Source: Antedon mediterranea | Lineage: Eukaryota > Animalia > Echinodermata | Assembly: GCF_964355755.1 (NCBI RefSeq) | Contig: NC_092678.1 | Location: forward strand, 8,944,422-9,008,421 | Direction: 5' to 3' | Length of the DNA: 64,000 nucleotides | Shown: positions 2,041 through 39,300 of the stretch, one piece after another | How the letters are laid out: each line of letters begins with the position of its first letter | Numbering within the stretch: the first letter of the stretch is position 1 | The notes under the pieces: model-generated | The model's input: only the letters and a program-made list of their open reading frames with translations | The model's database searches: none | Told to the model about the DNA's origin: nothing | Translations under genes and position numbers: made by a program

Positions 2041-2280
2041 TCAGTTAACTTCAACGCGTGTCCACCCTGATTCATCTGGTTTATATACAATGTTATCATA
2101 AGCGTATACGTTTTTAATTTCATCATTTTTATCATCATCTGGTTTCTTTATACTACTCTGAATTTCTGTTAGTTCTGTAACCAACGTTTCAAGCTTTTGT
2201 TTCTGTCGTTCTTCTTTTCTTCTTTCTTTAAGTTCTTTTGCTTCGAAGTCAAACTTGTTTGTTGTGACAATGGCCCAACG
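2041..2280 (-). CDS. SLC6A1: SLC6 exon 11 (cytoplasmic C-terminus, stop)
   Basis: Acceptor ttgcag| at 2281, RWAIVTT...TRVEVN then TGA. Confidence 0.85.
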   Translation of the reverse strand, partial: RWAIVTTNKFDFEAKELKERRKEERQKQKLETLVTELTEIQSSIKKPDDDKNDEIKNVYAYDNIVYKPDESGWTRVEVN

Positions 2281-10197: not shown

Positions 10198-10453
10198 GGC
10201 AGTAAACCTACACTTTTAAAACAATGAAAAGCTTTGAAAAATAAAGGTTTTAATTGAAACTACAGGCTGTCGGGTTATTAAATGGGTGTTGCTTATTCAA
10301 GATACAACGTTCAATGAAAAAACTTGAATTTGACTAATGATTAGAGGTCAACTGATACGGAATTCATTGATTAAATAATGACCTTTAGCGATAGTTAGAT
10401 AAACTGAATCAATAACTTCCGCAATATAGTTTTCTAGAGTAGAAAACCACGCA

Positions 10454-14117: not shown

Positions 14118-17100
14118 TTAATATGCATGTCGCCATGTTGATGGACCATACGTTGCAAGATTTTGACTTTGTTGATTGTTATCATGCATGTCTTGGTCAA
14201 AATAAAGATTCTGCTGGTTTGGTTGACAATTTGAAATATTTTGTGGAATCTCTAAATTGTGTTGGTTACCATACCATGGAGTATTCAGATGGTTGTTGGG
14301 TATATCAAGTTCATTGTTGTTTTCCTGCTTCGTGTTAGGTTCATTGCATCGGATATTTGTTTGATTATGCATTTCACTTATTTGGTGGTTGTCATTGTTT
14401 AAAATCAGTTCAACATTCTGCTGCCGGAGTTCTACGTTCTCAATAACTATTCTTCCATTTTGATATAAGACATGTTTTTCCACATTTCGTTTATTACACA
14501 TTATATGTTGATTGTTGTGAAGTTCAGTATGTGGATGAATCTGTTGGGGGATATTAGACCCATTCGGTGTATTATTCATCATTCCACCACATTGGTTAGC
14601 TGGCACCTCAAATTGTTGATGGTTGTCGATCATCGACATTTCCGGGTTATTGTTTATTAGCATTCTCTGTTGATTGTTGTTAATTATTGCTGTCAGTTCT
14701 TGTTTTAAAAGGATCTCAATTTTCTGTTGAGTTCTTAGTATTCCTGTTTCAAGTTGATCTCTATTTACTGATATAAACTCATTCATCACTGGTATACATT
14801 GTTGGCTGCTGACAGGTTGATCCATAATATGAAAGTTTCTAATACCTCTTTCTATTTGCTGGTTACCATGTATTGACATATTTTGTTGGCTTCTTGGATC
14901 ACCCGTGAAGGTGTGTTGGTTGATAGGTATTGACATACACTGTTGGTTTCTTGGATCTCCACCCATTTTTTGCTGGTTGCCATGCATTGGTATACACTGA
15001 TGGCTTCTTGGATCTCCGGCCATGTGTTGCTGGTTGTAATGCATTGCCACACATGGTTGGTTTCTTAAATCTCCACCCATTTGTTGCTGGTTGCCATGCA
15101 TTGGCATAAACTGTTGGTTTCTTGGATCTCCACCCATTTGTTGCTGGTTGCCATGCATTGGCACAAATGGTTGGTTTCTTGGATCTCCACCCATTTGTTG
15201 CTGGTTGCCATGCATTGGCACACATGGTTGGTTTCTTGGATCTCCACCCATTTGTTGCTGGTTGACATGCATTGGCGCACATGGTTGGTTTCTTGAATCT
15301 CCACCCATTTGTTGCTGGTTGCCATGCATTTGCATACACTGTGGGTTTCTTGGATCTCCACCCATTTGTTGCTGGTTGCCGTGCATTGTCACACATGGTT
15401 GGTTTCTTGGATCAACACCAATGTGTTGCTGGTTGCCATGCATTGGCGCACATGGTTGGTTTCTTAAATCTCCACCCATTTGTTGCTGGTTTCCGTGCAT
15501 TGGCACACATGGTTGATTTCTTGGATCTCCACCCATTTGTTGCTGGTTGACATGCATTGGCGCACATGGTTGGTTTCTTGGATCTCCACCTATTTGTTGC
15601 TGGTTGACATGCATTGGCACACATGGTTGGTTTCTTGGATCTCCACCCATTTGTTGCTGGTTGCCATGCACTGGCACACATGGTTGATTTCTTGGATCTC
15701 CACCCATTTGTTGCTGGTTGACATGCATTGGCGCACATGGTTGGTTTCTTGAATCTCCACCCATTTGTTGCTGGTTGACATGCATTGGCATACACTGTTG
15801 GCGTCTTGGATCTGCACCCCTTTGTTGCTGGTTGGTATGCATTGGCAAACATGGTTGGTTTCTTGGATCTTCACCACTGTTTTGCTGGTTGACATGCATT
15901 GGCGCACATGGTTGGTTTCTTGAATCTCCACCCATTGGTTGCTGGTTGCCATGCATTGGCACACATGGTTGGTTTCTTGGATCTTCACCAATGTGTTGCT
16001 GGTTGCCATGCGTTGGCACACATGGTTGGTTTCTTGGATCTGCACCCATTTGCTGCTGGTTTCCATTCATTGGCATACATTGTTGGCTTCTTAGATCTGC
16101 ACCCCTTTGTTGCTGGTTGCCATGCATTGGCACACGTGGTTGGTTTCTTGGATCTTCACCAATGTGTTGCTGGTTGCCATGCGTTGGCACACATGGTTGG
16201 TTTCTTGGATCTCCACCCATTTGTTGCTGGTTGCCATGCATTGGCAAACATTGTTGGCTTCTGGGATTTCCACCCATTCGTTGTTGGTTGCCATGAATTG
16301 GCACACATGGCTGGTTTCTTGGATCTCCACCAATTTGTTGCTGTTTGCCATGCATTGGCACACATGGTTGGTTTCTTGGATCTCCACCCATTTGTTGCTG
16401 GTTGCCATGCATTGGCATACACTGTTGGCTTCTTGGATCTTTACCCACACTTTGATGGTTACTATGCATGTTATGTTGCATAAGTTGCTGGTTACCATTT
16501 TCCGCAAAGCGCAGTCGATTGCCTGCTCGAATGTGGCTCTTTTGTATGTTATGTCTTTTGTATATAGATCTTAACCTGGAGAACTTCCATGTTTTATATT
16601 TATCTTGTACAGATTTAGAATGACGAGACCTATCAATGGTGTGACGTACTTGGGCACTATTATGATGTCGATACTTATTCTGTCTATCATAATTAATCCT
16701 TGTTGCTCTAATTTTGTGTTCACTACGTCTGTCTTTAGTGTCATGACCTTCTTTATAATTACTCTTTTCTTTCATTGAATCAACAATTGGTTTGCTTTTT
16801 TCCTTGAATCTGTAAGCCTTATCACTTCTCAAATTTGAAACCTTTTGTTTTTTTATCTCGTATCTATTTTTATCATTACGTGGATGGTGTTTTGTTGATG
16901 TCATGTCATCTTTTTTTGTGATTTCATCATATCTTCTAAAATTTCTTGTTTTAAAGTTATTTTCTTTTTTAACTATGACACTTCTTAACACATCTTGTGT
17001 TTTCTTTCTAGCTTTTTCACTAACTTCAACTTTTCTAATTGGAATATCATTAGGTCCCTTTGTAATTTTAATTTGAATATCTTCAATATGTCTACGTCTG

Positions 17101-18372
17101 TGATCACTTTCATTACTTGCTTCTTGTTTTCTGTTGTGCAGTTTCTCACCAGCATCATCAACTTTTCCACTTTCTTCAATATCATGCCTCCTTTTAGTAA
17201 CAAGTTTATTTTTATCCTTACTTTCAATGTTGCTCATTACATCGGTCTCCTTTTTTATTTCTCTTACCATAGTGCGGACATCAATATTCACTTTTCTAGT
17301 CTCAGCTTTGCTGTGCATATTTGTAAGTTTAACGTGAATATCTTCAATATGTCTACGTCTGTGATCACTTTCATTACTTGCTTCTTGTTTTCTGTTGTGC
17401 AGTTTTTTACCAGCATCATCAACTTTTCCACTTTCTTCAATGTCATTCCTCCTTTTAGTAACATGTTTATTTTGATCCTTACTTTCAATGTTGTTCATTA
17501 GCTTAATCTCATTTTTCATTTCTCTTACCATGGCGCTGTCTTCCATATTTACTTTTCTAGTCTCAGCTTTGGTGTGCATGTTTGTAACTTTAACTTGAAT
17601 ATCTTCAATATGTCTCCATCTACATTTTTGATCACCACCTTCACTAGAACTTCCTGTTTCCTTTTTTCCATCAAGCAGTTTTTTCTTTCCTTGTTCGTTT
17701 TGCTTCTTAGCATTGTATTTATCTTCATTTTCACAATAACTTTTGCATGCACCATCATTGCTGTCATTTGGTAAACATGTTTCATTCTTGATGTAAACAT
17801 TTTTAACATCTAATACTTGCTCTTTGTCTCTTTTGATTTCTTTTTTAATTATTTCTTTACAGTCGGTTTTGCATCTGCCATGCATGGTTCGCTTTTGGTC
17901 TTCTTGAAAAATCATTTCAGTGTTATTATTTTCTGTACCTTTGCATACAGTTTTATTACTGTCAGCTGGTAAAGATGGTTCAGTTTTGATTTCTTTTTTC
18001 ATATCAATTTCCTTGCCTACCCTCTTTTTTATAAAATTACACTGTGGACTAGGATTTGTTATCAGATCTATACATTCAGTTTTGCGCCTACCTAATATCT
18101 GTATGATTCGGTCACATTTTTGGTCTTCTTGAACAGCAATGAAACCATCTATTGTTTCAGTATTGCCGTTTTCTGCAACATGGCTTGATTTGTTAAAGAT
18201 TGTGACTTCTACTTGGCATTGTTCTGTTTTAACCAAGTTTTTGTCAATTAAATTTGCAGACTTCAATTGTGTTCTTGATAATTTACCATTTTCACTTTGT
18301 TCCCACTGAGAGTGCTCTGTTTTCAAGTCGGATACACATGCCTTAGTGTTTTTTTCTGCTTCACCATTGTTA
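14118..18372 (-). CDS. TASOR: TASOR-like terminal exon 19 (4.25 kb; charged region, 87-aa duplication, 19-aa DPR repeat array, Q/N-rich end)
   Basis: 1402-aa ORF with no initial Met, extended in frame to acceptor tttttcag| at 18373; stop TAA 14120-14118. Confidence 0.8.
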
Positions 18373-21300
18373 CTGAAAAATCAGTGAAAAATCATGTTAA
18401 TCGGCATAATTATTTTTTTTAACATAACATAATAATCAAAAAATATTTTTGCATACTCAAGCAACTAAAATTATCACTATTCCTTCAAAAAGAAAATAAA
18501 TGTTAAATTCCAATATGATGTATAGCTTCTTAAAGTGTTAATTCTTTAATACATACTTCTTTATAGCTAATCAATGAATCTTTGTGATAAAAAGTGTGAT
18601 TACTTCCAAAATTATGTTGAATAATTATTCTGAAATATTCTAATTTAGTACAGATTCTCAATGCTTTTAATTTGTTATGCACTTAAAGTAAAAGAGAATT
18701 TGATAGTTAACATTTAACATGGCTTCAAGGATGTAGCCAATCAAACGCGGTGAAATGAGTCACGTGTGCGCTCTTTATTTTTTCACTATCATGCACGGGA
18801 GTGTAAGAAGTGCGCAGCAAAAAGCATAACAGCACGACTGCAGGCAAATCGTATACCGATCACGCTGCACGATTTACGAGTACGAACCAGGTCCTGCATG
18901 ACGGCTCAATTAAAAAACAAACACACACCAATCTTCTACATTCTGCTCTAGACTAGACATAGGCAGACAGTGATTTGGTCACTGAGCAGTGGTGCTTGCC
19001 GTGTATAAGGTATAAGAAAAAATAGTTCATAAAACCATGTTATAAAACAAGTAATGCACAAGTCTAAATTCGTACGTTAATGCACTCTCAGGTATTCACA
19101 ATGTCGTGCAACATGCACATGTCGCAACCTGACTTGTGAATTATTTGTATACTACTGTTTAGGGTATGTAATTACAACTGACTTACTTAAAATCTATAGT
19201 GGTAATTAAATTTTGTAGAATGTTTCTATTAGCATGTCACTTTAAAATATAAAAAATATTGTTTATAATTAACCTTAACACAGAAAAGACACCATCGTGT
19301 TTGATAAAATTCTGAAATAATTTAATAGTATGAAATTTCAAGAACGAATTCTGAAATATGAAATGAATAATACAAGCACAGTACTACTACTATAACAACA
19401 TAACATACACATGTAAAATACTGATGCAGAACATGCAGAAGTGAAATATTGAAGAAATAATAATACAAACATAAGTAAACATTCATAAACAGCAAAATGA
19501 TTTTTTTTTAAAGCTATGCAAAACATAAATGGAATGTTTATAAAGGGAAACATGTTATTGGTAAACATGTAAATGTATGGTAGATGTTAATTAGTATATG
19601 TTAATGATGTAAATGGTAACACTATCAGATGAATTATCAGCTGGTAATTATGGTAAACAAAATATATATTTTTGCTGGATTCTGTAAAAAGTACTTAAAC
19701 AGGTTCATCTGCAATTTGTGCAGTGAAAAACAAAACAAACTGTAAAAATTGTGCATGCCCTAATAACAAATATTTAAAATTATATTAGACAGGTCCAAGC
19801 CAAGAAAAAACTACCATTGTCAGTGGATTTGTCATCCCAACACTATACTTTATGAAATGAGCTTGGGGGCCACCCCGATTTTTGCCCCAAATTCAAGATG
19901 GCGGCCAAAATCCAAAAATGGCTGCCAATTTGATCTAAATTGTATTGTAATGCGTATTCAATGCCCTTTTCCTTTTTAGACACGATATGTCATCCTAAGA
20001 ATATTACCTATAAATGAGTATTTCACTTCCGACTCAAAATCCAGATGGCCGACATAATTTAAGATGGCTGCCAATTTGATCTAAATTGTATTTACAATGC
20101 CTGCTAAAAAAATGCCCTTTAAAAACTTTTTAGAGTGGATATGTCATCCTCAGCACACATAATATTGAGAAGTTATAGTAGGGTCTCTGAGACACCACTA
20201 TAAAGAACAAAATATTTTGAAGTTTTAGTAGAGTCTCTGAGACACCACTATCAAGAACACAATATTGAGAAGTTTTAGTAAGGTCTTTGAGACACCGCTA
20301 TTATAGTTCCTAGTTCATTTTATTTGTCAAAAAGGAAATTCATGTTGACACACAAATGCTCAAAATTAGTCGAAGATTAGTAACATAGAAAATGACAATA
20401 ATATTTGAAGAAAAATAACACAGGTACAAAATTACTCTGATAAACAATGAATGAACGTAGTTGATTAAACAGCCTGATTGAATGTGTGGAATAAAATATT
20501 AAATTAAGGAAGCGTTTGTTCTACCTCGGGGAATCGCCTTCCAGATCTTAACCATTGATAATTACTATGAGTGGATGGGCCTTGTCTTTCATTATGATAC
20601 TAACTTTATCATAAACTTTAACATTATCAATCATGATTAAAATTGTCTGATTAATAATTCTACATGCCTTATTTACTAAACATTGTACATTCTTTAGGTC
20701 TGATTTCCTTAAGCTACTGAACCATATCAAACAGCTATAATCCAAAACACTTTGCATAACCGACTTATAAAACAGACCTAGTATTTGTCAACATTAAATG
20801 AGTTTAATTTTCTTAAAAAGTATAATCTGGTGTTACCTAGACCTAATTAAATTGCATTGTTCTCTCCAATTAAGTTTGTCGTCAATTACCATACCTAGAT
20901 ATTTATACTTGGATACAATATTGAGAAGTTGTAATCAACTTTCTGTTTGTTGAAAAGAGAGATCTTATTTATCTTCTCGATATTGTGGGCGGTCTCTTTA
21001 TTTCATAAAGTATAGTGTTGGGATGACAAATCCACTGAGAAAACCTTGAAAGCAGTTTTTCCTGGTTTGGATCTGTCTATGTGATGAAACATTAACACAA
21101 GGCTTTTGCATTAGAAACAAAGATAAACTTAATCCATTAATCAACAACATACTGTTTATTACAAAACACAATCTGTTTTTTCATTTGGCTTTTTAAAGAA
21201 CACATTAGTAACAAACATCACAGAACCATGCAGAAAACCATCAATACATTATTAAAGTGCGGATGTCTGCAATTTACATCTACATTACAATACAGAACAG

Positions 21301-24300
21301 ATCAAAATGCGCTCAATCAAAGTTGTATACCTTCAACAAAACTAAGCGTTTGCAACCTTTAAAACATTCTTCTGTAAAAATAAGGTATGTAGTTTTAAAG
21401 AGTTTCTTCATATAATAATAATAATTAATAATCATGCACATATCATTAAATAAAACAATATAAGAACCCTTTTAGTTTGTAAAGCCCAGCCTGTTATATA
21501 TGAACAAAGAAATTATATAATAATTATAATAGTGTGTTAATTGCAGACCGATAATTCGTATTCCTAATAAAATTCCTCCAAAAGTTTGATAAAGCAAGAT
21601 CCAGGGTTGGCACAATCATCACTAACATTTGAATGTGCACAGATCTGTATTTTTTCCATAATTCCAGGCAATGCTGCCTGCATTTAGGCCATAGACATAT
21701 AGATCGAAAATATTTTACTTTTTGAACATAGTGCATTTTTTTATACAAATCTGTATGTACACGTACTTCATACAAAATTGGTGAAAAAAAACTGTATACT
21801 ATCAATAAAATAATTTTTTCATCAAGGATAAAAATGAATTCTTTCATTAACATTGATAAGTTTTTTATCCTCTAGTAGATATACAATTGAGTACAGTATA
21901 CTGTGTGCAAAAGGATTACCAAAATTTAATTCCAAATTATTATGTCATCATCCATTACGAGAGAGTTTTACCTTCACCAAAAACTTATTAAATTGTTTAT
22001 GAAGTTGAACATAATTTGCATTTTTTTAAATGATTTTGAATGCTGTAAATGTAAAATTTACAGAACGTGGTATAATTTAGATATAAATATATTTTAATAC
22101 TTAAAACACTAAAGAAAAGCATTGAGAACCTTTTGTTTTTTCTAAATTGATTATTTAAAATAAACATTTTTGTTGGAACAAGAGCTGTTAAATCTGTTCA
22201 TGCCTATGCCTATTGTTTGCTCCTAGCAAGATGCTTAATATGCCAAATAAATATTATTATTATTATTAAGTTGTTCAAGATTATATAATTAATGTATTGC
22301 ATTGTTGGCAAAAACTTAAAAATATGAAATTGTAAGTATAGCAAGGAAATGAACAGTTTACTTTGAATAGTGGTATTATCATGTGATCTGAGCAAGCAAG
22401 AACAAATCCTCACCTTGTATCTTGGATATTACTTGTGTTTATGCGGCCCTGGACACCGAGACTACTATCTAACCCGAGAATTACAGATGTAACCTTTATT
22501 AAGAAAAATATTTTTAAAAATAAATTATGTACATGAATCATACTACTGTAATTTGTAAAAAGAATATACTGTATATTACTGTTTTCCGTAACCACAAATA
22601 GATGTAGGCACTACCTTAATTTAGTAAAAAACTAAAGTGTATGTTATTTGTCATACGGAAAAATGTTAAAAAGCTTCATTTTTTAAAAGCTTATATTTGT
22701 TAGATCTGCTCACACATGGTATTACATAAACATGCGACATTATCAAAGTTGAGGTACTCAAAAACAACAATTAAAGCCTAACGTTTAAAATCAAAGGTAC
22801 ATCACCAGCGATTTCAATCATGTATTGGACAGCATCAAAATCACTAATGCATCAGCAAGATCTGGATTTGACTGCTTACGTATCCAGAGATAAAAACAAC
22901 TCAACACAATGCTAAACTGTAAACACCAAAAATGTGTATGCCTTATTGATATGAGTTCAGTTCCTTAACATATTGCTTTATTTGAATAGTCATTCCATGC
23001 ATTTTAAACAATGTAATGATGAACTCTAAATCATCATTTTTACACCTGGGTGGAAAGAGGCAAACATAAGTGTCTTGCATATCGATACAAGCATGCGCTG
23101 ATAGTTGGATTCAAACTCACAATCTCACAATCAGTAATCCAACATCCAACACACTGCACCATACGCAGTTAACATAGATATGAAGATGATTTACCTTTTG
23201 AACTGATCTGGCAGGACTTGCAATTGTTTGATCTCCGTTTAAACTTATTGATAATTTACATTGATCATCCATTTGGTGACAACTTCCCAAATTAAGAGAG
23301 GTGGGATCCTTTGGAAAAATACCAATCATTTGTTGTGGTTTTGATCTTGACTGTGGTTTATTAGACCAACCATCAATCTCTTCTTGTTCTGGTGGATGAA
23401 TAGAACAATTTGGTACATCAGCAACAAGGTTCAAGTTACACTTTACATTGTTTACTTCCTTCGATTGAACAGATTCAAGACTATCTAATTGTTTACCACT
23501 TTTTAATATAGATGCAGGTTCCTTTAAAGTAACATCGACCACATTCCGAGTTTCTGATCTTGATTCTTGTTTGGTATCCGAATAACTATCAAGCTTTTCT
23601 TGTTTTGATGGATGTAAAGAAGGAGTCTGAGTAGTTTGTATGTCAGAAACAAGTTTCAAGTTACAATGGACGTTGTTAACTTCTTTTGATCGAACTAACA
23701 TTGGACGATTTGAGATACGACTTTCAATTTGCTTCACATTAGTCTTCAAACTCTTACACGCTGCAGCTCCAATAACAGGAATAGGTGCTCCTTCGGCAAC
23801 AACATTTTTATTACAAGTAATATCATGCACCATTGGTTTTTGCGGTATCGCTTTTTCCTTGCTAATAAATATTGAACTTGATTTTGTCAAATTCAGTTTG
23901 ATGGGCTTAATCTTTGGCAGCTTCTTGGTAGCTACGTTATCTTCATCTTTCACGGTGCAACCTTTTCTCTCTGGTCCATCTTTTAAGTCAACATTCTCAT
24001 GGTCAGATAATGTTTTTGAATCAACTTCATGAAATGTTTTTACAAATGATTTGAGATCTCCTTGTCTATGAGACATAATTTCATCCTGAATATCATTTGA
24101 AATATTTGGTTTAAATTCCACTGCACTTGCTTTAGTAAAAGGAACAGCAGGTACATCATAATTATACAATTCGTACAATTTTTTACATTTTTCTCGGAAT
24201 GAACCAGACTCAAACGTTTTCTTACATCCAATCTTCTCTACTTCTTCAAAAAGTAGCTTATCTTCTATATCCGAGACGGACACTGTATCTGACGTTGTTT

Positions 24301-27300
24301 CGGTTGAACAAATTTCAACAACCTAGTTTTAAGATTAAATAGTTTTTTGTTAGTCAATTTTTATAATTGCTAGTATAGTTCAAAATAGCACAACCAGATC
24401 AGTTCACTAGTTGTAATGATTAAACTTAATGCAAATGGTCAGGAAGATCATTCGCAGTCACAGCCTTAAGTGAGCAAAATCGAGCAATTTCATATAATTC
24501 TATATTTTGTACCTGTGTTTGAGTCATTGGTATTTTGCATGTTGTGTAATAGCAACGGTTAAATGTATGTTTGTATATGTTCAAATATTGCTCCTTTTTG
24601 GAGGTGAGCGGGGAAGAGGAATAACGCCTAAAGTGTTAAACAAAAAATAAAATGTCTAACAATATATTAATTAAGGATGTATTGTTCCCCGAAAACATGA
24701 AAAATGAAGATTTAAATAATCAGATTTTGGATAGAAGACAAGCGATCGGCATAACATTGCCGACAGACAATTGGCCGACTGGATAATTCTCCCAAAATCG
24801 TCTTACACTTATTATAAAATACAAGTTTTTAACCGACATTATGAAAAGTGACCTGCATTACAGCATTGCTATAAGAACGTGTTACTATTATTGTAATTTT
24901 AACATTCTATGGACAACAAAATTTTCACTGCAATTTTTTAGTCCTGTATCTAAGATTCATTCAATGTCATTGTAGCTGTAATGTTTAATCTCTCTATTTA
25001 TACTAGTTTTAGTTACGGAATATCTGTAAAAAAATTATTAACAAAGGTTTTTTGCAGATTCATACTCTATCAAATACCAATATACACCAAAAAATTCCTC
25101 CAGACATCAGATAGAGAAAGTGGTTAAATTTGACATTTGACCTTACAAGGCATATGACACTGCAACTCGGTAACCATTGGTCCGAGAGACTTAGTTTTGG
25201 CACCAAAATGTTCCTTATATACATATTTATATTTACTATAACAAAGTATTTTTTTTTTTAATTCATTAGAAATGGTGGAAAATGACCTTTGACCTTTTAA
25301 GCATACAACAGGTGTATCTCAGTGATCCTTGATCCTAGAGACTTACTTTTGTCACCAAAATGTTCCTTATATACATATTTATATTTCCTATAATTAAGTA
25401 TTTTTTCAAAAATTCATGAGAAATGGTGGAAAATGACCTTTAATTAACCTTTTAAGGCATATAACACATGTATATCGGCGGTCCTTGGTCCTAGAGACTT
25501 ACTTTTGGCATCAAAATGTTTCTTATATACATATTTATACAGTATTTCTTGTAATAAAGTATTTTATAAAAAATGAATTAGAAATGGTGGAAAATCATGC
25601 TCTTATATGGTCATGAAGCTGTATTCTGAAGACCATTGGTTGTAGTAGAGATTCTAATTGGCATATTCATATATATTAAGTAATAAAGTATTCTTTATCT
25701 CCTATATCATATATTGCATTCTTGTATAATAAATTAAAATTCAAAATAAACATTTATTTCTTTCAATTGCAGAATAGAAACATAATAAAGAACAACAATG
25801 AAACGTAATAATAAGATTTAAAAAAATAAAATGTAACATACAAATCATAACTTTCATCAGAGAATCATTAAAAGAATGTCAAAATTTCAATTCTGTGTAA
25901 TAAAAAATAGAAAGCAAAAGAAGGTGGCAAAGTCCAAAGGGAGAGTCTGAGTGGGAGGAGTCATATATTAACAAAGGTTTGAAACAAAACGTGATTACAC
26001 ACACAAAACAAACACACACCCATAATGTATCCCTATCCCAAAAAGTTAATTATGTCTTCTAACCTCACATATTTTGTTCTTGTATAATCATGTATCCCTC
26101 TCCGAAAAACTTAATGTCTCCTCCTAATCTCATATGTTACATATATGGGATGCTTATGGGATCGGATCTTTTCTGTTCTCTATGGGCCATACCGGCTCTG
26201 TATTGGAAATGGGAAAAATATTTGGTCCCATGTCTGACCCATAACAGGAAAAACTTAACTTAACCTATATGGATTTGCCTGAATGAACCCTCTAAGGACC
26301 CTTTTGGGATCTCTATGTGGTGCGCTACATAAGGCCCTGTATTACTATTAATAATTAATATGGGGTAAAGAGTTCATAGATTGGACCATATAATTATAAT
26401 AAAACTAAATGTGCACCCTTGATCTTGATTATAGATTTTCCCAAATGAACCCCAGGCCGATCTTCCATGAACCCTTCTGGGTTCTCCATGTGGGGCTACA
26501 AGAGGCCCTATATTGGAAATACTGTATGTAGGATGAAAATGTGGGTTCATATAGATATGTCCATGAAATAAATCTGCCTGTGCACCCTCGATCCTTAAGG
26601 AACATTTATTGATTTACCCAAATTAAACCCACGGTCCTCCATGGATCTCTTCAGGGTTCAATATTCGTTCCAATTCTCAGAATCGTCTCCTGCTAAAGTG
26701 AAGACCATCTCATATGGTCACCATGCATTATCTTATGCAGCTCCTATGATTTGGAATTCTCTTCCAAACTGCATTAAAGATGCACAGTCGGTGGCTTTTT
26801 TTAAGAGGCTTCTTAAGACATATTTTTTAAGATATATTGTTTAATAAAGCATATTAATCCCATTTTTTATCCTTTTCCATGCCACCTAGGTTGTTTTAGA
26901 TCTAGTTTAAGTAGGCTAGGAGGCACTTGAGTCCGGGATGACCGAGCCACAACTGGTGCTGACTGAGGTTTGGTTTTTTTTTTTGGCTTTTTTAACACTG
27001 TATTATGTTGTCCAATAACTTCTGACCATTCTGGTTCACTATTGCTATCAATTTTTCTGATTTTCTGATGGGTGATTCAGTAACTTTTTCCAAAATATGT
27101 TGCATTATGCCAAGTATAAACATATGAATTGTGAACAATTTGACACCAAAATTGGCTCCATACGACAAATATTTATAAATTTATATTATTAAAATAATAG
27201 AAATTAGAATAAATAAACTTATAAATTTTTGTCAAAGGTCAATAACCACACTTCCGGTCATTTTCAAGCAAGATCTTCTGTTAAACTCAATATAAATATA

Positions 27301-30300
27301 TATCTTGGGAACAATTTGCTCCTAGTTTTAATTCCCTCCGACCTGCCGTTACTTAGATATGGCAAAAAGAGGTCAAAGGTCAATAACCACACTTCCGGTC
27401 ATTTTCAAGCAAGATCTTCTGTTAAACTAAATATAAATATATATCTTGGGAACAATTTGCTCCTAGTTTTATTTCTCTCCGACCTGCCGTTACTTTTAGA
27501 TATGGCGAAAAGAGGTCAAAGGTCAAAATTGCTGAAAATGGGGTTTCCGGTAAATTTTACAAAAAAAATTTCTATTATAACTAATATTAACATATACATT
27601 GTAAACAATTTGACACCAAAATTAATTCAATAAAATATAGCATGTTTGTATGCAAATAGTGGCCATTTTGTTTACATGATAAACAGTGAGTGTTGACAAA
27701 GTGCGAGGCAGCAAGGCACGCGAGGCAAGCGAGGCATGCCAAATATTTGTGCGAGGCATCATTTTATCATTTCCAAAAGTGCGAGGCATGCGAGGCATAT
27801 AGTTTACAATTTCAAAAAGGTGCGAGGCATATCTTAACGTGCTATTATGCTATATTATAGGCCTAATAATCAATCGATACAAGCGTATCTAAATAGATTC
27901 GTGTATACACTCATCATGTTGTTTATTTTTATGTAACGATTGTTTTTTCATTCAAGTCATATCGTGTCAAATTTTACTTTTACAAAAGTGCCCAAACTAC
28001 GTTTCAAAAATCTGAACGACAGTCTTCAACTTTCGATAAACAATAATTGTTATAGCGACACACTCATCAAATGACTGCAATGTTTGTTGGCATTTCGAGC
28101 GTGTTCACTCACATGTCTCTCGAACATAGCAGAGTGAAAATAATATTTTGTCACACCCCTGCGCCTAGATCCGGTAGACCCGAGAGATGGAAAATCCCTC
28201 TGTACTATTTAGCAGGTAGCGGAATGATTCAGCCCTCAGCTCAGAGGATTGTGGTGCATTCCCCTCCTATAGCACGTGGTTTCAGCAGCAACGCACAGAC
28301 TTCTCTCTGAGCGGCGTGCCAAAGACATTTTTGACATTCCATTCTCTAGGAACAACACGTGTACCTCTCTCGCAAATAAGGTGAACAGCGATTGCCAGGA
28401 CAAGTTCAATAACTGGCGGTGAATAAAAGGTAACTGATATGGCGATCCAATAACATGCCGCAAAGAAAAAAATTGCGACAGAATTCTGGAGCGCGTGTGA
28501 AAAAAGACTTACGTCCGACAATTGTAATACTAGGCCTAAAATTAAACTTTAGCTAATATGCTTAGCCCTAACCTAGATAAGAGGCCTATGTAGAAAATAA
28601 TTTAATCAATTTTGATATAATAATAATTGGTGTAATATTTAATAATGATACACTATTCCTGTTTTAGTAAGCTAGGTATATTACGAACGATTTTTATTTA
28701 TTGTTGTTCATGTCGTACACACTAATAAACCTGGCGCTAGTTTCCTTCGCTTGTATTTTTACTCCAAATTTGATAACTAACTTTATCGTGTGAATACCAC
28801 ACCTTAGAAGTATACCTCATGAGTACTTTAATGAAAGAATCACATAAAAAGTAACAAATAAATCCTTAAATTAATGATTTTACAGGCGTATTTCTCGCAC
28901 ACTGTTCGCGAATTTCACTTATTCAATGTTCAATATTTTTGTTTCTATGGAGCGCCAAAAGAGCAACGATAATAGAGGACTAAAACTCAGTGGAATGCGT
29001 CAATTTCTCATGCATTTATTGGTGAAAAACACGTTTTATTTCAATATATTTGTTAATTTGTCAATAAAAATGCTGTAATATGTTACTGCTGATACTGTTC
29101 TGTTTTCAAAGAATAATAATCGATCCTAAATCAACATCACTACCTAGTCTAGACCTAGGACATCCTACTAAGGATATTATGATGAATTTTTCTATTTTAT
29201 TCTTTAAAAGGTTACCGAAACCGTGTACATTATCAACAGTACACCGGTGAACAGTAACATTTTTCCTTACTGACAGTGACAAAATCTATTGAAATTGTAC
29301 TTGATTTTCACCAAATAATGCGTTAAATATAAATGGATTCCACAGAGTTTTTAGCCCTCTAATTAATTTTGCTCTTTTGGCGTTCCATAGAAACCAAAAT
29401 ATTGAACATTGAGTGTGCGAAATGCGAGAAAAACAACGTCTGTAAAATCACCAATTTAATGGATTTATTGTTACTTTTATGTGATTTTTCTTCATTAAAG
29501 TAGGCCTACTAATTCTAAGCTGTGGTATTCAGGATAAAGTTGGTTAAAATACAAGGCAGGTGCAAAAGGAAACTAGCCTAGCGGGCCTAGGCCTAGGCTA
29601 CTTCAATTTTGATGATTTCCTGCCTTGCAATTTTGAGAAATGATAAAATGATGCCTCGCATTTTTTGATGATGGTAAAATGATGCCTCGCATACATTTCT
29701 GACTTGCCTCGCATGCCTTCCCTGCCTCGCATGCCTCGCTGCCTCGCACTTTGTTACTACCCATAAACAGTACAGAGTACATGATAAACATGATATTTCT
29801 CAGTTTTAGTCTCAATAACTTCAATCTACACCTATGTCCACAATCAACTATCAAATGATTCAAATTTTTTTACACATGATCATTATATTGGAAAGATATT
29901 TTTAGAGAAGTTTCGATACCATTGCGTGCTACCTGTACCTTTTTTTTTTTTTGGTGTAAAAAATATAATTTTGTTGTTTTTTTGGAAAAAATGCTTATAA
30001 ATTAGTATTAATTGACCAAAATTCATACTATAACCCAATATACACCTGCATAACTATATATCAAAATAAAGATAATTTAATAAGCTATCATTTGGTACTA
30101 AATAAAACGGGGTACATTTAAAATTCACAACGTTATTAAAACAATAACAGGCGTATCTCTAATTTGACACCAAATGACCTTTGACCTCAAAATTACCCCC
30201 TTTCCCCAGCTCAAAATTCATGGAGGAATTTTTTGGAATGACTTGGGATGCATTAGAACATGAATCCACTGAAAAACCTTTGTTAATAATTATTTCACAG

Positions 30301-33300
30301 ATTTGTATTTTTTTTACCTAAAATTCCCTAACTATTTGGTATGGAGTATGAATTATGTTACCTTATTTTTTGATTTCATCTTTTTCCTGTGGACTGTAGA
30401 CAGTATTCCATCAATCAAAGATTGACTCATATCATCACCATCTATGCTCACATTTCTAACAAAGTAAACAAAATGCAATCATTTAACAAATGTACTGATG
30501 GATACAGCATCAAGTATTGCACCACCGAAGAAACCAAATGAGTTGAGGACAAGGAAATAGAGAAATTAGAAAATAATAATAAAGATTTCATACAATAACA
30601 ATTCTAAATGGTCAGCTAATTACCTCAGCTCACCTCAGGTTATGTGCGGTATAAAATTTCGCAAAGATTTCGTTGCGCAATTTGAGAAGCAAATCTTCAC
30701 AATTCAAGATTATTTCAGCCTGTATTATTAGTTATCCGCTTGGTAGAGCAGATAACTCCTTGTTATTGTATGAGATCAATATTTTTTTTTTGTATTATAC
30801 TTCTTTCCATCCTTCCTTTTTGTGGATCGCGTTTCTCTAAAATGTGTAAACATAACATTTCATAACTTTGACAACATATGGGCATTTACGTGAAGTTGTG
30901 CACCTCCTATTTTTGAATGACGTCATAGTTGCGCAACGGAACTTACGCGCAATTTTATGAATTTCAATGATTGATCATAGATTAAAAACCAAAAGTCATT
31001 TAGTATTGACACTTTGACAAAATTTAAGTCATATCAGGGGAAAACTTTCTACGGATTAAAAATGGCATGTTTCACAAGAAGTTACGCGCGCACGCGCATT
31101 TAAAATTTCAAAATGCGCAAAATTAACTTCTAATCAACTTTTTATGCGTTTCTTGTCATTTTGAGCTTGTCAAAAATTCCCATATTTTTTTCTCTTGAAT
31201 TATATTTTTCAAGCCTTTCCTAGTAATTTTAAAAACAATTTAGACCTTTTCCAGTTTAAATAACGCCACACGAACACGTTGAATTAGACAATTTGTGCGC
31301 GTTTTTTATAAAAAAGCTTTAAAAATCGTCAAAATAATGTCTTTCTTTAAACAGTCATAATTTCTAAAGTAAACCGTGAACCGTTTATTTTTATTACAAA
31401 ATCTAGAAGTTGATGAGTTGTAGATATGGGATCATCCATCGATAAGGCTAAAAAAAACATTTTGACGTCATCGTATGGCCACACAAATGTAAAATATAGG
31501 ATTTTTGTCTCTTTCGTTATTGCTCATCACATTCAATGCAGCGCATCACGCTTAACAGTATTCCTTTTTCTCCTACATTTATATATTGTCTAGGTCAATC
31601 AACTTTCTTTAGCATGAGATAAAAATATTTTAATTTTTATGACGTCATCATGCCTAAAAATGTTAATTACGTGGGTCATTAATTTCATCTTTACAGTAAA
31701 TTTTAATCTGTAATAGCTCGTAAGAATAAAATGTGATAATCACGATTAAAACGTTTTCTGGAAGCTATTGGATTGTAGATACGAATTCATGTAAACATTT
31801 TGCCAATCGGATGTTGTGACGTCATCATAATGGCCAGTTGAATAAAAAAAGTTGTATTTTCATATTTTGCGTAATAGTTCATCACATTTAAAAGGGTGCG
31901 CATCTATATTTTACGTATTCAAATTTCTTCTACACGTTAATGTGTTGTTCCTGAGATAATTTCCTTCTGAAATGGCTATCTAAGTGTTTCATTTTGATAC
32001 CGTCGCCATGTTAAAAATTGGAATAAATGGCGGGTCCCGTAATTTCACCTATTCTACACTGTATGTAATATGTATACAGATTATACTGTTTGCATGTATA
32101 TACTATATATCACACAAAACTGACAGAATTCAGCACTAACAGCATATCATATTCTTCAGTTCTTGTCATAATGCCATAATCTTCATCTGTGTGCAATATT
32201 CCAACGTATGACGTGCACGTGGCGTTTGTCGTGGTGCGGATAACTAACTCGTCAAAGTGACGAGTTTCATGTCTAGTTACAATTAAATACACAAGTGGCT
32301 ATTATATTGAAATATGTATATTTAGAATTAGATTATTACATCAATTTTAACTAAACTGATTTTGGTTGAAGAAAATGATTTGCACATTTGTAAAATATCT
32401 GTTGAACATTTAACGTGAAAACTGTTTTATTTTTTATTTTTATAGATTTGAGGGTTCTATTTTTGCACAAATGTGGTTGAGAGGAAGCATAAGAGAAGAT
32501 GGAGAGATGAAATAACCAAATACACAAACGCGGCAACCTAGACGAGAATGGCATATGATAGAAGAAAATGGAAATTGCTAGGCGAGGGCTATACCCAACA
32601 TGGATGAACACAGCCTGATGATGACAAACAAACCTTTTGACTTTAAACAAAATGCAATCTCAAATTAGGGATACTTTACTACTTTGTTTTAAACTTTAAT
32701 TAAATTGCACTATTATCATACCTGTTCATATGTAAGCTATGGAGAACACATTTAACAAGTTCATCCTCTTTAGATGTAGCATTGGCCCACCAGTCTGTAC
32801 GGTTGATACCACAAATAACTTGTATGGTTAAATCATTTCTTCCTTTGCGTTTTACAATCATGTTAGGCCTTGATTGACACAAGGTCTTTATAAAACTCTT
32901 CTGGCCTTCTACATCATTGCTACTAGAGTCTTCATTAATACTGCGGTTTTGAGGCTTCTTTATTCTATGTACATTGTTATAGAAATGTAGTATATTCTCT
33001 TCACTGGAGTCAAAATCTCTGTCGGTCAAGGTATCTCTTTTTAACTTTTTATCCTTTTTCTCAGAAAAATAAGATGGTGCAATGAGCTTTCTTTTAGAGA
33101 GCAAATCTGTTTTGTGAGTTGTCACAGAATGTATATGTGTTTCAGATGATTGACAATGGAGGGTTTGAAACATTTTTCCACTTGACTCATCCGACCACTT
33201 CATATGTGATTCTTCAGATGAATGTTCATGTTTAATTGGTAGTTCATATGATTGTCTAACTAGTTCTTTAGTTGATTGCTTCTCGTTCTTGGATGATGGT

Positions 33301-36300
33301 TGAACATCTACCTCAAACATCATTTTGTTTTGTTTCTCATACAAATGATGTCCTTCAGATAACTGTCTGATTTGATCTGAACATAATCTATTTTCCTCGT
33401 TACATGATTGATAGCTGTTTACACAAGACCATGGTTTAATAGGTTCAGATAAATGTGTAGTGTTCACCTCTGATGCCTGCCTGATTGGATCTAGAGATGA
33501 TATACTTCCCTCCTTAAATGATTTCTGACTTTCCTCCTTAGACAATAGTTTATTTTGTTCGTCAGATAAATGTTGAATGTGTACACTAGATGATTTCAGA
33601 TCTGAACATAATGTAGTTTTTTCATTTCTTGATCGTTGATTTTTAATTTCAAACAATTGTTTGCTTTGTTCCTCAGATAAATCTTGACTGGGTGCATCAG
33701 ATGATTGCTTTAATAGATCTACACAAAATCCATTTTCATTCTTACATGTACTTGGTCTTTCTACCTCAGGTTCTTGTTCTTTAGCTACAAGTATACTGTG
33801 TACAATTGACGATTGTCGGAAATTACCTGTTTTAAGTGATCTACTTGCATCCTTTGATGATTGTTCAGTTTGTACTTCTTCAGCAGAATGAGTAACTGTA
33901 TTCTCAAATGAATTACACATAGATGGTAGTTCAATGCTTTGCTTATCAATTTCATGTGTATGTTTACTATTGTATGTTTCATCAATATTGTTCTGCAATT
34001 CTTTATACTTGAAGACGGATTGATCTGTACAGTTTGTTTCTGTATCCTTCTTTTGTCCATCAGAGACTTGCCAACTTATATTACTAGTGATTCCTTCAAA
34101 TTTTGAATCTGCAGTCTGGTCTTCAGAATTTGTGATTTGTTCATTTTCATGTTGAATTTTCTGGGGAATTGTGGATTTCAATAACTCCTTTTCTGTTACT
34201 GACTCATTGACTTTTGACCTTTCAACATGTTTCTCAAGGTATTGACTATCTTCAATAGTATTTGAGATGTCCTCATTCTTGATAGCTATGGTTTTGGAAA
34301 TTTGAGTTTCTTTATTTTCTTCAATTTCTACCTTTGTGATGTTTGAATTATTTGCAGATTTACTGTTTGCATCGAAGCAAAGGTATTTTGAATCGGCTTC
34401 AGCTTTTTTTGAGTTGTTCCTCCTCTTAGACTTGGACAATCCTACACCAGCATTCAGTAAACCTTTAATGAAAGAATATAGGCAACATTACAAACTATAG
34501 TTTCTGTAATACTGTTTACTGTATGTGTATATTTTTCTGTACAATTCTAACCTTTTAGTTTTGATGATAAAATAGTAATTCAATGTATTTTTGCAATGAG
34601 TAAAAATGAAGCCAGAATTTTAAAGAATATATGTTTTATTTATTTTTCCTTAGTCCAAGTCCTCAAAAGTACTTACATTTATGTTTTCCTCTATTAGAGT
34701 TTTTAGTCTTCAATTTTCCATGTTTTGATTTTTGCTTGGATTTTATTGTGTAGGAATTTAAAAACTCTTTCATTTTGTCTACCTCACTAAGTTTATGACT
34801 TGAATGTTTTAAGGCAGTATTCAAGTATGCTTTCATATCTGAGGCTGCAGAAATAGTCTGACAAACTTCAAATGAACTTTTTTCTGAATCATCTTCAGAC
34901 ATCATTTTTACATTTTTTACTTTGTTCTCCTTGGATTTGCAAAATGATTTCACCTGCAAAGTTTCTTTAGAATAAATTTGCTTAGAAAGTTTCTTTAAAT
35001 CATTTTCTGGTAAGTGCCTTCTTCTTTTACCTTTTATAGTGTTTTTGGAAATGTGTGGTTTATTATCTTTAGATTTACATGCACTAGGATTATTCTTACA
35101 TTTTGATTTGCCTTTCACATTATTTCTTACATGCTGAAACTTGCACCTTTTGTTTAAAGGTTCTTGACCACTGGTTGAAATGTGGATTTGTTTCTTTTCA
35201 TTTTCTATTTCTGGAATAACTGTTCTCTTATCTTTCCCTTCATTTAGTTTTGTAAGAGGATACGAAACAACAAGGTTTGGTAGGCAAATACTGTGTTCTG
35301 TAATGTTTAGATCTGGAACACTTGCAGGAGTGAGTTGCATATACTCAGGACCAAAATTGTGGTTTGGCATTTCAGTTGTGTTTACTGGAACAGTTGAAAG
35401 AGTATCCTTATCTAATGAAAAACATGTAACATCTGATTTTGTTTGACAGGCAAATGACTGTCTAGCACTCTGTGATTTGCTAGGTTTCTGTGAACAATCA
35501 TTTAATGTTTCTGACACCTCAGAATCTGATAGAAACTCATAGTCCATGCCAACTGATGTGTAGTCATCAAAAGTATCGGTTGAATAATGTTGGCCACTTG
35601 AAGCTTTATTTGGTGGTGGGAAGGTAAACCTCTCATAGGTAGTACAAAAAGAGTCACCATAACTGACATCAGAATTATTTACAACAGTTGATATAGAATT
35701 ATCTCTCGAACCAATATCAATACCGCAAGTACCATATGGACCATTAAGCTGACTAGGATCAAGTCTATAAGTTTGTGAATGACTGCCTGCAGGTCTGCAA
35801 TGTAAAGCATTTACTGTTACATCCATGGATTTGGCTTTTTCTGTTATATCTGTAATTTCTTTTAATTTTGTAAAGACATTGTCAGGAAGCTTCACTTTAT
35901 CTAGTGCAAATGTGTTGGATGCATTTATTGCTAAAAATCCAATATTCTCAATAGTTGGCTCTGGGCTTGCTGGTGAAAGGAATTCATCCTGTTGTGGATG
36001 TGTAGGTGTGGTGATATAATCTCTACTTGACATCATTTCTTCCTTCTTCATTTGATGTGCAATGTGTATACTTGGTGTGCTTGAATGAAATACAGGCTTG
36101 CCATTCTATGAATTTAGAAAAGTAAAAGAAAAAATAAAATTGATTTTCAAAATCTTTAGTATTCTGTGCCTCCTTCTAGATAAAATATATAAGATATATA
36201 AATATGTATATGCAGAGACAAAAGAAATATTAAAAATAGTGGAGACATTAAAAAAAATGTTGTTCTTTCACATTTTGTAAATGTGTTACTGTTAAAGAAA

Positions 36301-39300
36301 TAAAAGATGAATATTGTTTGTTTCACATGGCAGATGTGTGTTTTGGACCATTTTTTTTTCTTTTTGCATTGCATTGCATTGTATATAGTGGTATTTAAAT
36401 GTATAACATTTTGAAAAATGGAACTGAAGGTCACCGGAAATTGCACTTACTACATTCCGAAATATGAAACAAAATATGTAAGTCTCCAGAACCAGCCCTA
36501 CCAAAGTTGTAGCTGAGCTAAGACAATTTTGAAAAATAGAGCTGCTAGGTCCTCGATAATGCACTTATAATTTGAAATATGAAACAAAATATAGAATTTT
36601 TGTTCCTTTCGTTATTGCTCATCACATTCAATAGAGCGCATCTCGCTCATACGTATTCAATTTCCCCCGAGATTTTAATAAGTCATATTTCCACCTCTTG
36701 CGTAAAAATTCATTGCGTTTAAACAAGAGCACATCTCAATTTTACGTCCCCAAAATTCTTAGATAATTATCTTCTAAAATTGTTATTTTTATATGTCCAT
36801 TTGATGATGTCATCGTGTTAATAATTGGATTTAAAAGATGGATCTCGTAATTCCATCTATGCTACACTGTATAACATATACAGTGTATTCTGTAAATACT
36901 GTAATTATGATGTATGCTACAAAATAGGTACAATTCAGCACTGTAAACATATTTATTTCATGTCATAGGATGCCATAATAATTGTCGAGGTTCATATAGT
37001 ATGTGCATGTTGCGTATGCACGGATAACCCGAACTCGTCAAAGTAACGAGTTCAAATCTAGTTTTTCTATGTAATTCTTCTGTCTTTCCCCGAATTATGT
37101 TGGCAGCGTATCTCTAATTCTGGCCAACATAAGATTGTGTAACTTTGTCATAAGAAATTGACCTGTAGCTGTAGATGTGCAGGACGTTTCATTTTTTGAC
37201 TTTAGAGTCGCGCAGCGTAACTTACGCGCGATTTTATGAATTTCGCGTATTTAACATAGATCGAAAACCTTAAACAATTTAAATTGAAACTTGACAAAAA
37301 TGTAATTTATATTAAGCGCTAACTTTCTATGTATTAAAATGGCATATTTCACAGAAAGTTTCAAAATGCGAAAAATCAACTTCTAATCAACTTTCTACGC
37401 GTTTCATGTCATTTTGAGCATGTCAAAAATTCCCAAGCGCGCGCATTTTTCTTGCGCGCATGTACGCATGTACCGCAAAAACAACTTTTTTTTGCTTGAT
37501 TTTTGTTTTTCCAGCCTTTTCTAGTAATTTTACCAACTTTCAAACAATTTCGACTTAAAATCACGTCATACGAGCACGTAGAATTGGACAATTTGCGCAC
37601 GTTTTTGATGAAAAAGTTCAAAATTTCGTGAAAATTATGCCTTTTTTAAAGTCATAGATTCTAAACTACGTGGTGAACTTTTTAAAATTACAGATTCTGG
37701 AAGTTGATAAGTTGTAGATATCGAATCATGAATCAATATGGCTAACCGGACACTGTGACGTCATCGTATGGCCACTCGAATATAAAATATAGGATTTTTG
37801 TCTCTTTCGTCATAGCTGATCACATTTAATAAAGCGCATCTCCACTTATCCGTATTCCTTTTCCCCCTATTTTTTTATATTGATTAAGTCAATCAATTAC
37901 CTTTCGCATGATTTACCATTTTTAAAATTGCGATGACGTCATCATGGTCAAAAGCGTCAATAACTTGGGTCACTTATTTTCACCTATTCTGCACTGTATG
38001 TACAGTACGTATACAGTAAATGGTGTATACTGTATATACTTAGACGTGACACAAAATAGAGAGCACACTAAAATGTTTTTAATGGCATAATCGTTTTTCT
38101 GTGCGCAACGTATGACGTGCATGTGGCATTTGTGCTGCGGATAACCTAACTCGTCCGTAGTGACGAGTTCAAATTTAGCTTAATAACTATTTTCAAAAGT
38201 ATCAGAAGTCATATAATGTTTTTCTGATACTACTTATTATTTTCTAGACCCAATATATATTTTTTTACAAATATTTAAAGTATTTTGAAATAATACTAAA
38301 GCGATGAGTGATCGTGTGAGGATGACCTTTTGACCTAAAACACTGGAGTTTTTGCTGTTGGTACCTTTTCACACCAAAACACCGGGGTGTCCCCGCAGTT
38401 CGCTCTCCGGAGAATGTTCAGCTGTTCAACCCGCAGTTTTAAACTCAGGAGTTGTTTGATTTTACCTTTCACACCACAACTCTGGGGCGTCAACTCCGGA
38501 GTGTCTCCGGAGTTTTGCTTTTGGTGTGAAAGGGGTATAAGTTGTGTTGTGATTTTAAAAAAAATAGAATTTGTAATTTACAGATTTTGTATTTCCAATT
38601 ATAGTATCAATTTCAACTTATATGTTCTAAAAAATGTCAACGATATATCTTCTCAAAATTCGAATAATTATTATACAAGATCAATGGGAAAATTAATACA
38701 ATGGAATTTTTATTTACAGCTTAGCAATTAAAAAGTGGAGATTTAGCTTGGTGGTTAAGTTGCTTGGCTACCAATCTCAGAGTCTTTGGTTCTAATCCTG
38801 TATTTTTCATGACAATGACACTTTCTTTATGTTGAGTGATTTTTGAAGAAATTGATATTTGACAATTTTCCTCAATAATATCAATTAAAACAAACCTGAA
38901 GAGAATGTGGTGATTTTTGTTTGTTTGCTTTTAGTTGAGTAGTATTCTCAAGCTCCTCTCTTGCCCTATGCAATGCAAACAGCTGCTCTTGCAGTTGGCG
39001 CAGTTTTCTTCCTTGAGACTTAATCATTTCGGTGTCATTAGAAACATCAACATTCTGTTCCTGTTCTTCTTCCCTAATGTACATTAATCAAACAACTATA
39101 TTAGATATAAATTTAATAAACATGATAAATGTGTGATAAAGAGGACACCACATCGTTCCTAATGAGCATCATAAAGAACAATGATTGAATATAATTAATA
39201 AAATTAGGCCTAAAATGTTTAAAATTGCTAAAAGGCTAAGGAATTTTTCTAGCCTAGAGGGCGGTAAAAAAATTATTAATGTTTGCAATTTAAATTTTAA

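Follow-up and report, generated by a model that had tools for sequence, protein, structure and literature searches.

Introduction

Vertebrate TASOR is the scaffold of HUSH, with the domain order DUF3715/RDTS-SPOC-DomI-DomII-PIN, and TEX15, an executor of the piRNA pathway, consists of DUF3715 plus TEX15 domains. A DPR motif in ZC3H4 has reportedly been treated by Estell et al. 2023. In the SET1A N-terminal domain, mutation of DPR to AAA abolishes WDR82 binding, according to the accessible text of PMC9911701, and the DPR proteins named as WDR82 binders there and in the accessible part of PMC13710762 are SET1A/B, ZC3H4 and S. pombe Symplekin, with PCF11 and Pti1 predicted. The DPR pocket of WDR82 and the grooves that it offers to PNUTS do not overlap (PMC13710762). 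In mouse cells, WDR82 co-immunoprecipitates with TASOR in an RNase-resistant manner, as given in the available portions of PMC10915761 and of a review (PMC7619638). The same portions of the respective papers call HUSH vertebrate-specific (PMC10915761), state that MPP8 binding needs DomI (PMC7618375), and describe invertebrate TASOR-like proteins, defined as DUF3715-SPOC-DomI (Schopp et al. 2023, PMC10578480).

A reading made from sequence alone (the sequence-only reading) had proposed that an array of DPR-bearing repeats in a protein of the crinoid Antedon mediterranea docks WDR82 and termination factors, making of it a HUSH-Restrictor hybrid. The background on which it drew stands for DPR as a WDR82-binding motif of SET1A (and of S. 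pombe Symplekin) and for the tie between mammalian HUSH and WDR82, which the mouse co-immunoprecipitation provides, but not for PNUTS, which we ruled out as a DPR user because its grooves are distinct from the DPR pocket. Nor was the idea undescribed, since a TASOR-DPR-WDR82 link had already been offered as speculation (PMC13710762). That paper and its preprint were all that our literature search returned for TASOR with a DPR repeat. For TEX15 with WDR82 the search gave HUSH papers only, WDR82 being absent from the readable text and supplement of the TEX15 paper, and no published report of TEX15 with DPR was found in a search that most subscription literature lies outside. New relative to the literature found are the family-wide conservation of DPR, the TEX15 motif and the DPR arrays. 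Our main reading, to which we give roughly even odds (about 0.5), is that the Antedon gene encodes a TASOR-lineage protein that likely docks on WDR82 through a single KDPRL motif, and that a repeat tail shared between crinoids gained DPR, adding candidate sites that are probably weaker.

The gene encodes a TASOR-lineage protein

The window (the whole 64,000-nucleotide stretch of Antedon DNA that was analysed) carries on its minus strand a gene whose product is the RefSeq protein XP_071961501 of this species (100% identity in the homology search, which also gave three further RefSeq isoforms). The introns of the model have GT/AG at or beside their ends. The gene and its two recognizable domains are placed as follows.

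14118..57129, minus strand: whole gene; 19 coding exons, mapped from 57129 to 14121, RefSeq XP_071961501, 3696 aa
47257..53080, minus strand: DUF3715/RDTS pseudo-PARP-type domain; six exons, residues 177-384
41398..45428, minus strand: TASOR-type SPOC domain; four exons, residues about 439-576

The DUF3715 domain is recognized by Pfam PF12509 (E 6e-28, 98.3 bits against a cut-off of 28.5) and aligns to residues 2-211 of the TASOR structure 6TL1 in the PDB (E 3e-40). The SPOC domain that follows it is detected by a vertebrate TASOR HMM (iE 1e-16) and by hhalign (99.5%, E 4e-23, 138 columns), the Pfam SPOC model alone giving a weak match (E 0.025). The local hhalign alignment to the TASOR profile ends where SPOC ends, leaving DomI unaligned; past SPOC, ambulacrarian proteins have one amphipathic stretch that might represent the first helix of DomI in diverged form. 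Pfam gave no match to the alpha/beta (DomII) and PIN domains in the Antedon protein, and the C-termini of amphioxus, fish and abalone homologues, which would cover DomII/PIN, had no tblastn or blastp match in the window or in eight ambulacrarian-group proteins. Both domains are present in the amphioxus homologue. The TEX15 domain PF15326 is absent from the Antedon protein in Pfam, and a whole-protein Pfam scan to E 1 contained no zinc-finger family.

A DUF3715 tree (FastTree, midpoint root) was built from 155 of 158 domains, P0132, P0140 and P0160 being dropped as too short, and its clades took their labels from members with a name or a Pfam type. Hemichordate, amphioxus and other echinoderm sequences form a group with the Antedon domain, and the sister of this group is vertebrate TASOR plus TASOR2 (0.86). 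The TEX15 group stands apart, with 31 members and a support of 1.00; this placement and the absent TEX15 domain together ruled out a TEX15 orthologue. The molluscs are split in the tree between the TASOR and TEX15 sides, with Argopecten P0143 and Octopus P0035, for example, falling with TEX15. Given its DUF3715, its TASOR-type SPOC and its place in the tree, the Antedon protein is a member of the TASOR lineage, which bears out the earlier description of it as TASOR-like. Since DomI is unaligned and neither the alpha/beta domain nor PIN was detected, we call it a TASOR-lineage protein and not a demonstrated HUSH scaffold, and for the same reason the proposed HUSH-Restrictor hybrid is unsupported.

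Elsewhere in the window, a multi-exon SLC6 sodium:neurotransmitter symporter gene (PF00209; about 2044-10215, minus strand) lies downstream on the same strand. An intronic 24-nt minisatellite between two DUF3715 exons (47920-48666, 31 copies, 99% identity) gives rise to spurious 255-codon ORFs, and intronic stretches at about 27300-32300 reach a very high depth in the contigs of each of the four runs, as high-copy interspersed repeats would.

A KDPRL motif follows SPOC, and DPR is enriched across the DUF3715 family

One DPR of the protein, absent from the sequence-only reading, stands alone in the linker after SPOC.

40613..40627, minus strand: single KDPRL motif after SPOC; residues 650-654, DPR at 651

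The crinoid Anneissia japonica has RDPRL (682) at the aligned place, with flanks that are otherwise divergent. At the end of the same exon, a DTS-YGTFGSGW motif (window 40388-40440, minus strand) is kept in both crinoids between divergent flanks and is possibly a second binding motif.

We counted tripeptides in 153 proteins with Antedon excluded (149 of the best 150 of 318 homologues, taken at E 0.001 as 50%-cluster representatives, and four others). There are 164 occurrences of DPR where 56 are expected, a 2.9-fold excess uncorrected for shared descent, and its five permutations occur 47-68 times each (0.84-1.21 fold). When clusters are collapsed, 134 DPR sites compare with 47-61. Among 4020 tripeptides DPR ranks 10th for enrichment, and first for the number of proteins with three or more enriched copies (10 proteins).

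The counts by clade, which ignore kinship, use windows chosen after inspection and proteins long enough to be scored. DPR is found at a conserved linker site in 30 of 44 vertebrate TASOR proteins (3.0 expected), and within the window of the respective clade in 14 of 27 invertebrate TASOR-like proteins (1.9 expected), in 15 of 19 members of the vertebrate TEX15-side group and in 7 of 8 TEX15-side invertebrates (0.3 expected in each), and at the window in 3 of 34 TASOR2 proteins (1.8 expected). Throughout the 38 proteins of the TASOR2 clade there are 10 DPR versus 14.6 expected, with no conserved one. The motif is present in 12 of 13 Pfam-confirmed TEX15 proteins, 115-196 residues past DUF3715 and mostly as KDPRL; in vertebrate TEX15 it reads (I/M)KDPRL, for example at residue 430 of P0148, 412 of P0138 and 448 of P0177. 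Orthologues such as Mytilus P0009 and Diadema P0041 have no DPR, and several molluscs of the tree carry 3-5 scattered DPRL-type motifs each.

The isolated DPRs of the family are followed by a hydrophobic residue in 82 of 120 cases, and KDPRL, which matches this pattern, is the most likely docking site of the Antedon protein. On the side of the putative partner, the motifs that match the two pocket phenylalanines of S. pombe WDR82 are conserved in 104 and 109 of the 120 WDR82 matches from animals in our alignment; none of the 120 matches listed is named as Antedon. The TEX15 KDPRL is a candidate WDR82 site that may link piRNA-directed silencing to termination, and a DPR-less TASOR2 would set HUSH2 apart from HUSH in its coupling to WDR82.

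The exon 19 array matches its description and is probably young

The remaining 21 of the 22 DPR in the protein lie in a minisatellite of the last exon; by chance about 0.56 DPR would be expected in a protein of Antedon composition.

14118..18372, minus strand: last coding exon (exon 19); about 1418 codons plus stop
14853..16448, minus strand: 57-nt coding minisatellite of 28 units; residues 2921-3452 of XP_071961501, 19-aa unit rich in Q/N/P/G/M
17059..17615, minus strand: tandem pair of 261-nt (87-aa) copies; DPR-free, where exon 19 is rich in Lys/Arg/Glu

The array sits within a 1420-codon minus-strand ORF (14118-18380), and exon 19 has no significant Pfam match. TRF reports a 57-nt array at 14942-16447 with 26.4 copies, 87% matches and 0% indels. 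Read in register from 16448 to 14853, it gives 28 units of 19 aa with 21 DPR, three DSR, three DLR and one NPR (unit 4), so the array had been described exactly, down to its consensus and its DPR count. The motifs have G-G ahead and N-Q behind, and the residue next to DPR is N or S in 20 of 21 copies and R in one; Ser makes up 2% of the array and Thr 1%. AlphaFold2 run on the array alone from a single sequence, a weak test, returned no confident fold (mean pLDDT 40.6), and the array is a predicted disordered, Q/N-rich tail. Run X1 has an in-frame 6-nt deletion at window 16446, at the start of the array, a length polymorphism at the array edge.

The Arg of the unit is invariant (28/28), as had been claimed. 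Its codon, however, is AGA in all 28 units with no synonymous change, and Gln17 is equally invariant (28/28), so this invariance mostly reflects a young array, and we ruled it out as a sign of selection.

The DPR array is likely a lineage-specific addition

The alternative closest to the sequence-only reading sees in the array a multivalent dock for WDR82, kept by selection, which would concentrate WDR82-PNUTS-PP1 on target transcripts and drive premature termination. We regard this as unlikely, although it survives better than the other alternatives. The Anneissia protein XP_033120052 has the same architecture as Antedon and a homologous repeat tail, in frame; the Antedon unit profile matches 21 stretches of it and none of any other homologue in the set. 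Units of this tail, registered by hand, have no DPR and no D in the slot (0 of 25 for each), which reads NPS, TPS, NSR, THN and similar. N7, Q8, H14 and N16 each persist in 21-25 of the 25 units (18-25 when C10 and P12 are included). Conservation of DPR across orthologous arrays, as a dock of this kind was supposed to have, is thus contradicted in the one crinoid orthologue compared. Since the repeat is shared and DPR is absent from Anneissia, either the repeat is older than its DPR or DPR was lost in Anneissia; two species do not fix the direction, and gain in the Antedon line is likely from the comparison of the units.

Within Antedon, seven of the 28 units have lost DPR, and two of the three units with DSR are identical in DNA. 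Pairwise pN/pS between units is 0.95, and the array has 13 synonymous alleles versus 13.8 expected under neutrality. This near-neutral divergence, with no overall purifying selection on the array, also goes against a conserved dock. The DPR codons themselves hold three nonsynonymous alleles versus 7.4 expected (P 0.018), as a selected dock would have it, for a motif chosen after sight; some three-codon window is as low in 25% of simulations (P 0.25).

A selected dock is better served by the rest of the family. We detected 50 tandem arrays, 44 of them with no DPR cluster, and DPR clusters occur elsewhere in Amphiura (11 DPR in two clusters), Megalops (9), Mizuhopecten (6) and Lampris (4), at different positions and with different periods and spacers. 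DPR clusters are present in 5 of 49 non-Antedon arrays, in four proteins versus 0.46 expected (P 0.001), and the expectation that DPR arrays would recur in relatives with other spacers is supported by the enrichment of DPR and by its amplification in these four other species. The clustered DPRs elsewhere likewise mostly have a non-hydrophobic next residue (32 of 44), and the DPR pocket of WDR82 lies apart from its PNUTS grooves (PMC13710762). However, SET1A shows that binding to WDR82 can work against termination too (PMC9911701, accessible text). Taken together, the under-mutated DPR codons and the recurrent DPR arrays give hints that the array might be selected and no mere add-on. Because the matching repeats of the nearest relative have no DPR, it is likely a lineage-specific add-on and not a conserved dock.

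It is also possible, though we consider it less probable than a selected dock, that the tail is a Q/N-rich low-complexity region acting in self-association or Cys/His metal binding, with accidental DPRs that do not bind WDR82, whatever KDPRL does. The core common to both crinoids is N-Q-x-C-x-P-x-H-x-N, few parts are less conserved than the DPR slot, and both arrays are Q 20%, N 10-15% and H 6-12%, all of which would suit such a tail, as would the near-neutral divergence of the units. A single transition turns N into D, and NPR is still present in unit 4. What this account leaves unexplained is that DPR is the tripeptide most often amplified in the family.

A 41-nt stop exon would remove the tail

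Ahead of exon 19 lies a short exon that is absent from four RefSeq isoforms (P0001, P0003, P0004 and P0005).

21331..21371, minus strand: cassette exon of 41 nt, bounded by AG and GT; X1 and X5 contigs carry its joints 18372-21331 and 21371-22414

Contigs from X1 and X5, which belong to two studies (X1 is presumed to be an RNA run, and the kind of X5 is unrecorded), have GT-AG joints 24320-30360, 22491-23193, 21371-22414 and 18372-21331 among the joints listed; none of these four X1/X5 joints is among those listed for X2 and X3. The exon 19 acceptor is used in contigs of both X1 and X5. The supposed splicing of exon 19 to the DUF3715 exons thus holds, by contig joints, as far as the three preceding exons, and upstream of exon 16 the linkage is predicted by the RefSeq model, its GT/AG ends and the Anneissia architecture.

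When the 41-nt exon is included, translation ends in R-R-M-F-stop, giving a protein of about 2282 aa and leaving exon 19 untranslated. The stop is 28 nt ahead of the last junction. Under the 50-55 nt rule for decay, a transcript with this stop would escape decay. A joint that skips the 41-nt exon is not among the joints listed. In X1, the exon 19 contig extends a single base past the shared AG, and a skip/include branch between the two upstream exons would fit this end. A further alternative is that exon 19 is mostly untranslated, as the 3' UTR of an isoform with the stop exon, and that its array has little protein function. The main X5 contig, which includes the 41-nt exon, and the joints listed, none of which skips it directly, would agree with this. 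It is very improbable in view of a frame that stays open for 1420 codons at about 33-47% GC, the homologous and in-frame Anneissia tail, the four isoforms that skip the exon, and an X1 contig end such as the skip/include branch would probably give.

Discussion

Our main reading, of docking through KDPRL with a tail of added sites, would work as follows. The protein would follow nascent transcripts, and its KDPRL would dock on the WDR82 pocket in the way that the DPR of SET1A and Symplekin does. By analogy with mammalian HUSH, this could tie the protein to the Pol II termination machinery on those transcripts. DPR would have arisen in the Antedon line within an older Q/N-rich repeat, and minisatellite expansion would have brought it to 21 copies, so that the array might act as an optional avidity booster made of probably weaker WDR82 sites. 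Inclusion of the 41-nt stop exon would remove the tail and leave KDPRL in place. A role in transposon silencing may be supposed from the family only. We ascribe less to the array than was done before because it fails the orthologue test and because the HUSH architecture is incomplete.

The stronger and testable result is the family comparison, with a conserved DPR in TASOR, TEX15 and invertebrate relatives and its repeated amplification. It gives sites at which the HUSH-WDR82 contact and the mechanism of TEX15 could be examined (the linker DPR of vertebrate TASOR and the KDPRL of TEX15, with no such site conserved in TASOR2). A wider view, which we put forward tentatively and think rather doubtful, is that the DUF3715/RDTS family are ancient WDR82-docking silencers, that TASOR2 lost its DPR, and that arrays tune the link, Antedon being an extreme case with a switchable tail. 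If true, DPR would tie both HUSH-type and piRNA-type silencing to the Pol II termination machinery. The Antedon array, with its DPR, DSR, DLR and NPR units, is a natural series for the effect of flanks and copy number on WDR82 binding; should it be inert, the array is just another coding minisatellite, and what stands is the result for the family.

Comparison with known systems

Like Pol II CTD-type arrays, the Antedon array has short, evenly spaced repeats in a predicted disordered tail, but it is not conserved between the two crinoids, its divergence is near neutral, and it has almost no Ser/Thr/Tyr for a phospho-code. The zinc-finger RNA-binding subunit that is a feature of Restrictor (ZC3H4/Su(s)-WDR82) is missing from the Antedon protein. 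With the WDR82-binding DPR proteins it shares the tripeptide in an extended or disordered context, which makes it a candidate binder. It differs from them in its 21 evenly spaced copies, in having neither a zinc finger nor a SET domain, and in its one WP dipeptide (695), absent in Anneissia.

TEX15 resembles the Antedon protein in having DUF3715 followed by a KDPRL motif, but it belongs to a separate clade, shows no SPOC in Pfam scans and has the TEX15 domain that Antedon lacks. Compared with the invertebrate TASOR-like proteins, the Antedon protein differs in its unaligned DomI and in its long C-terminal DPR array, none such being found described in the accessible text of PMC10578480; it is like them in being an invertebrate protein with an N-terminal DUF3715 and then SPOC. 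Vertebrate TASOR mostly has one DPR, versus 22 in Antedon, whose protein is 3696 aa long, has a stop-exon isoform and has no detectable DomI, alpha/beta or PIN domain. What the two share is DUF3715, a TASOR-type SPOC, their side of the tree and a DPR in the linker after SPOC.
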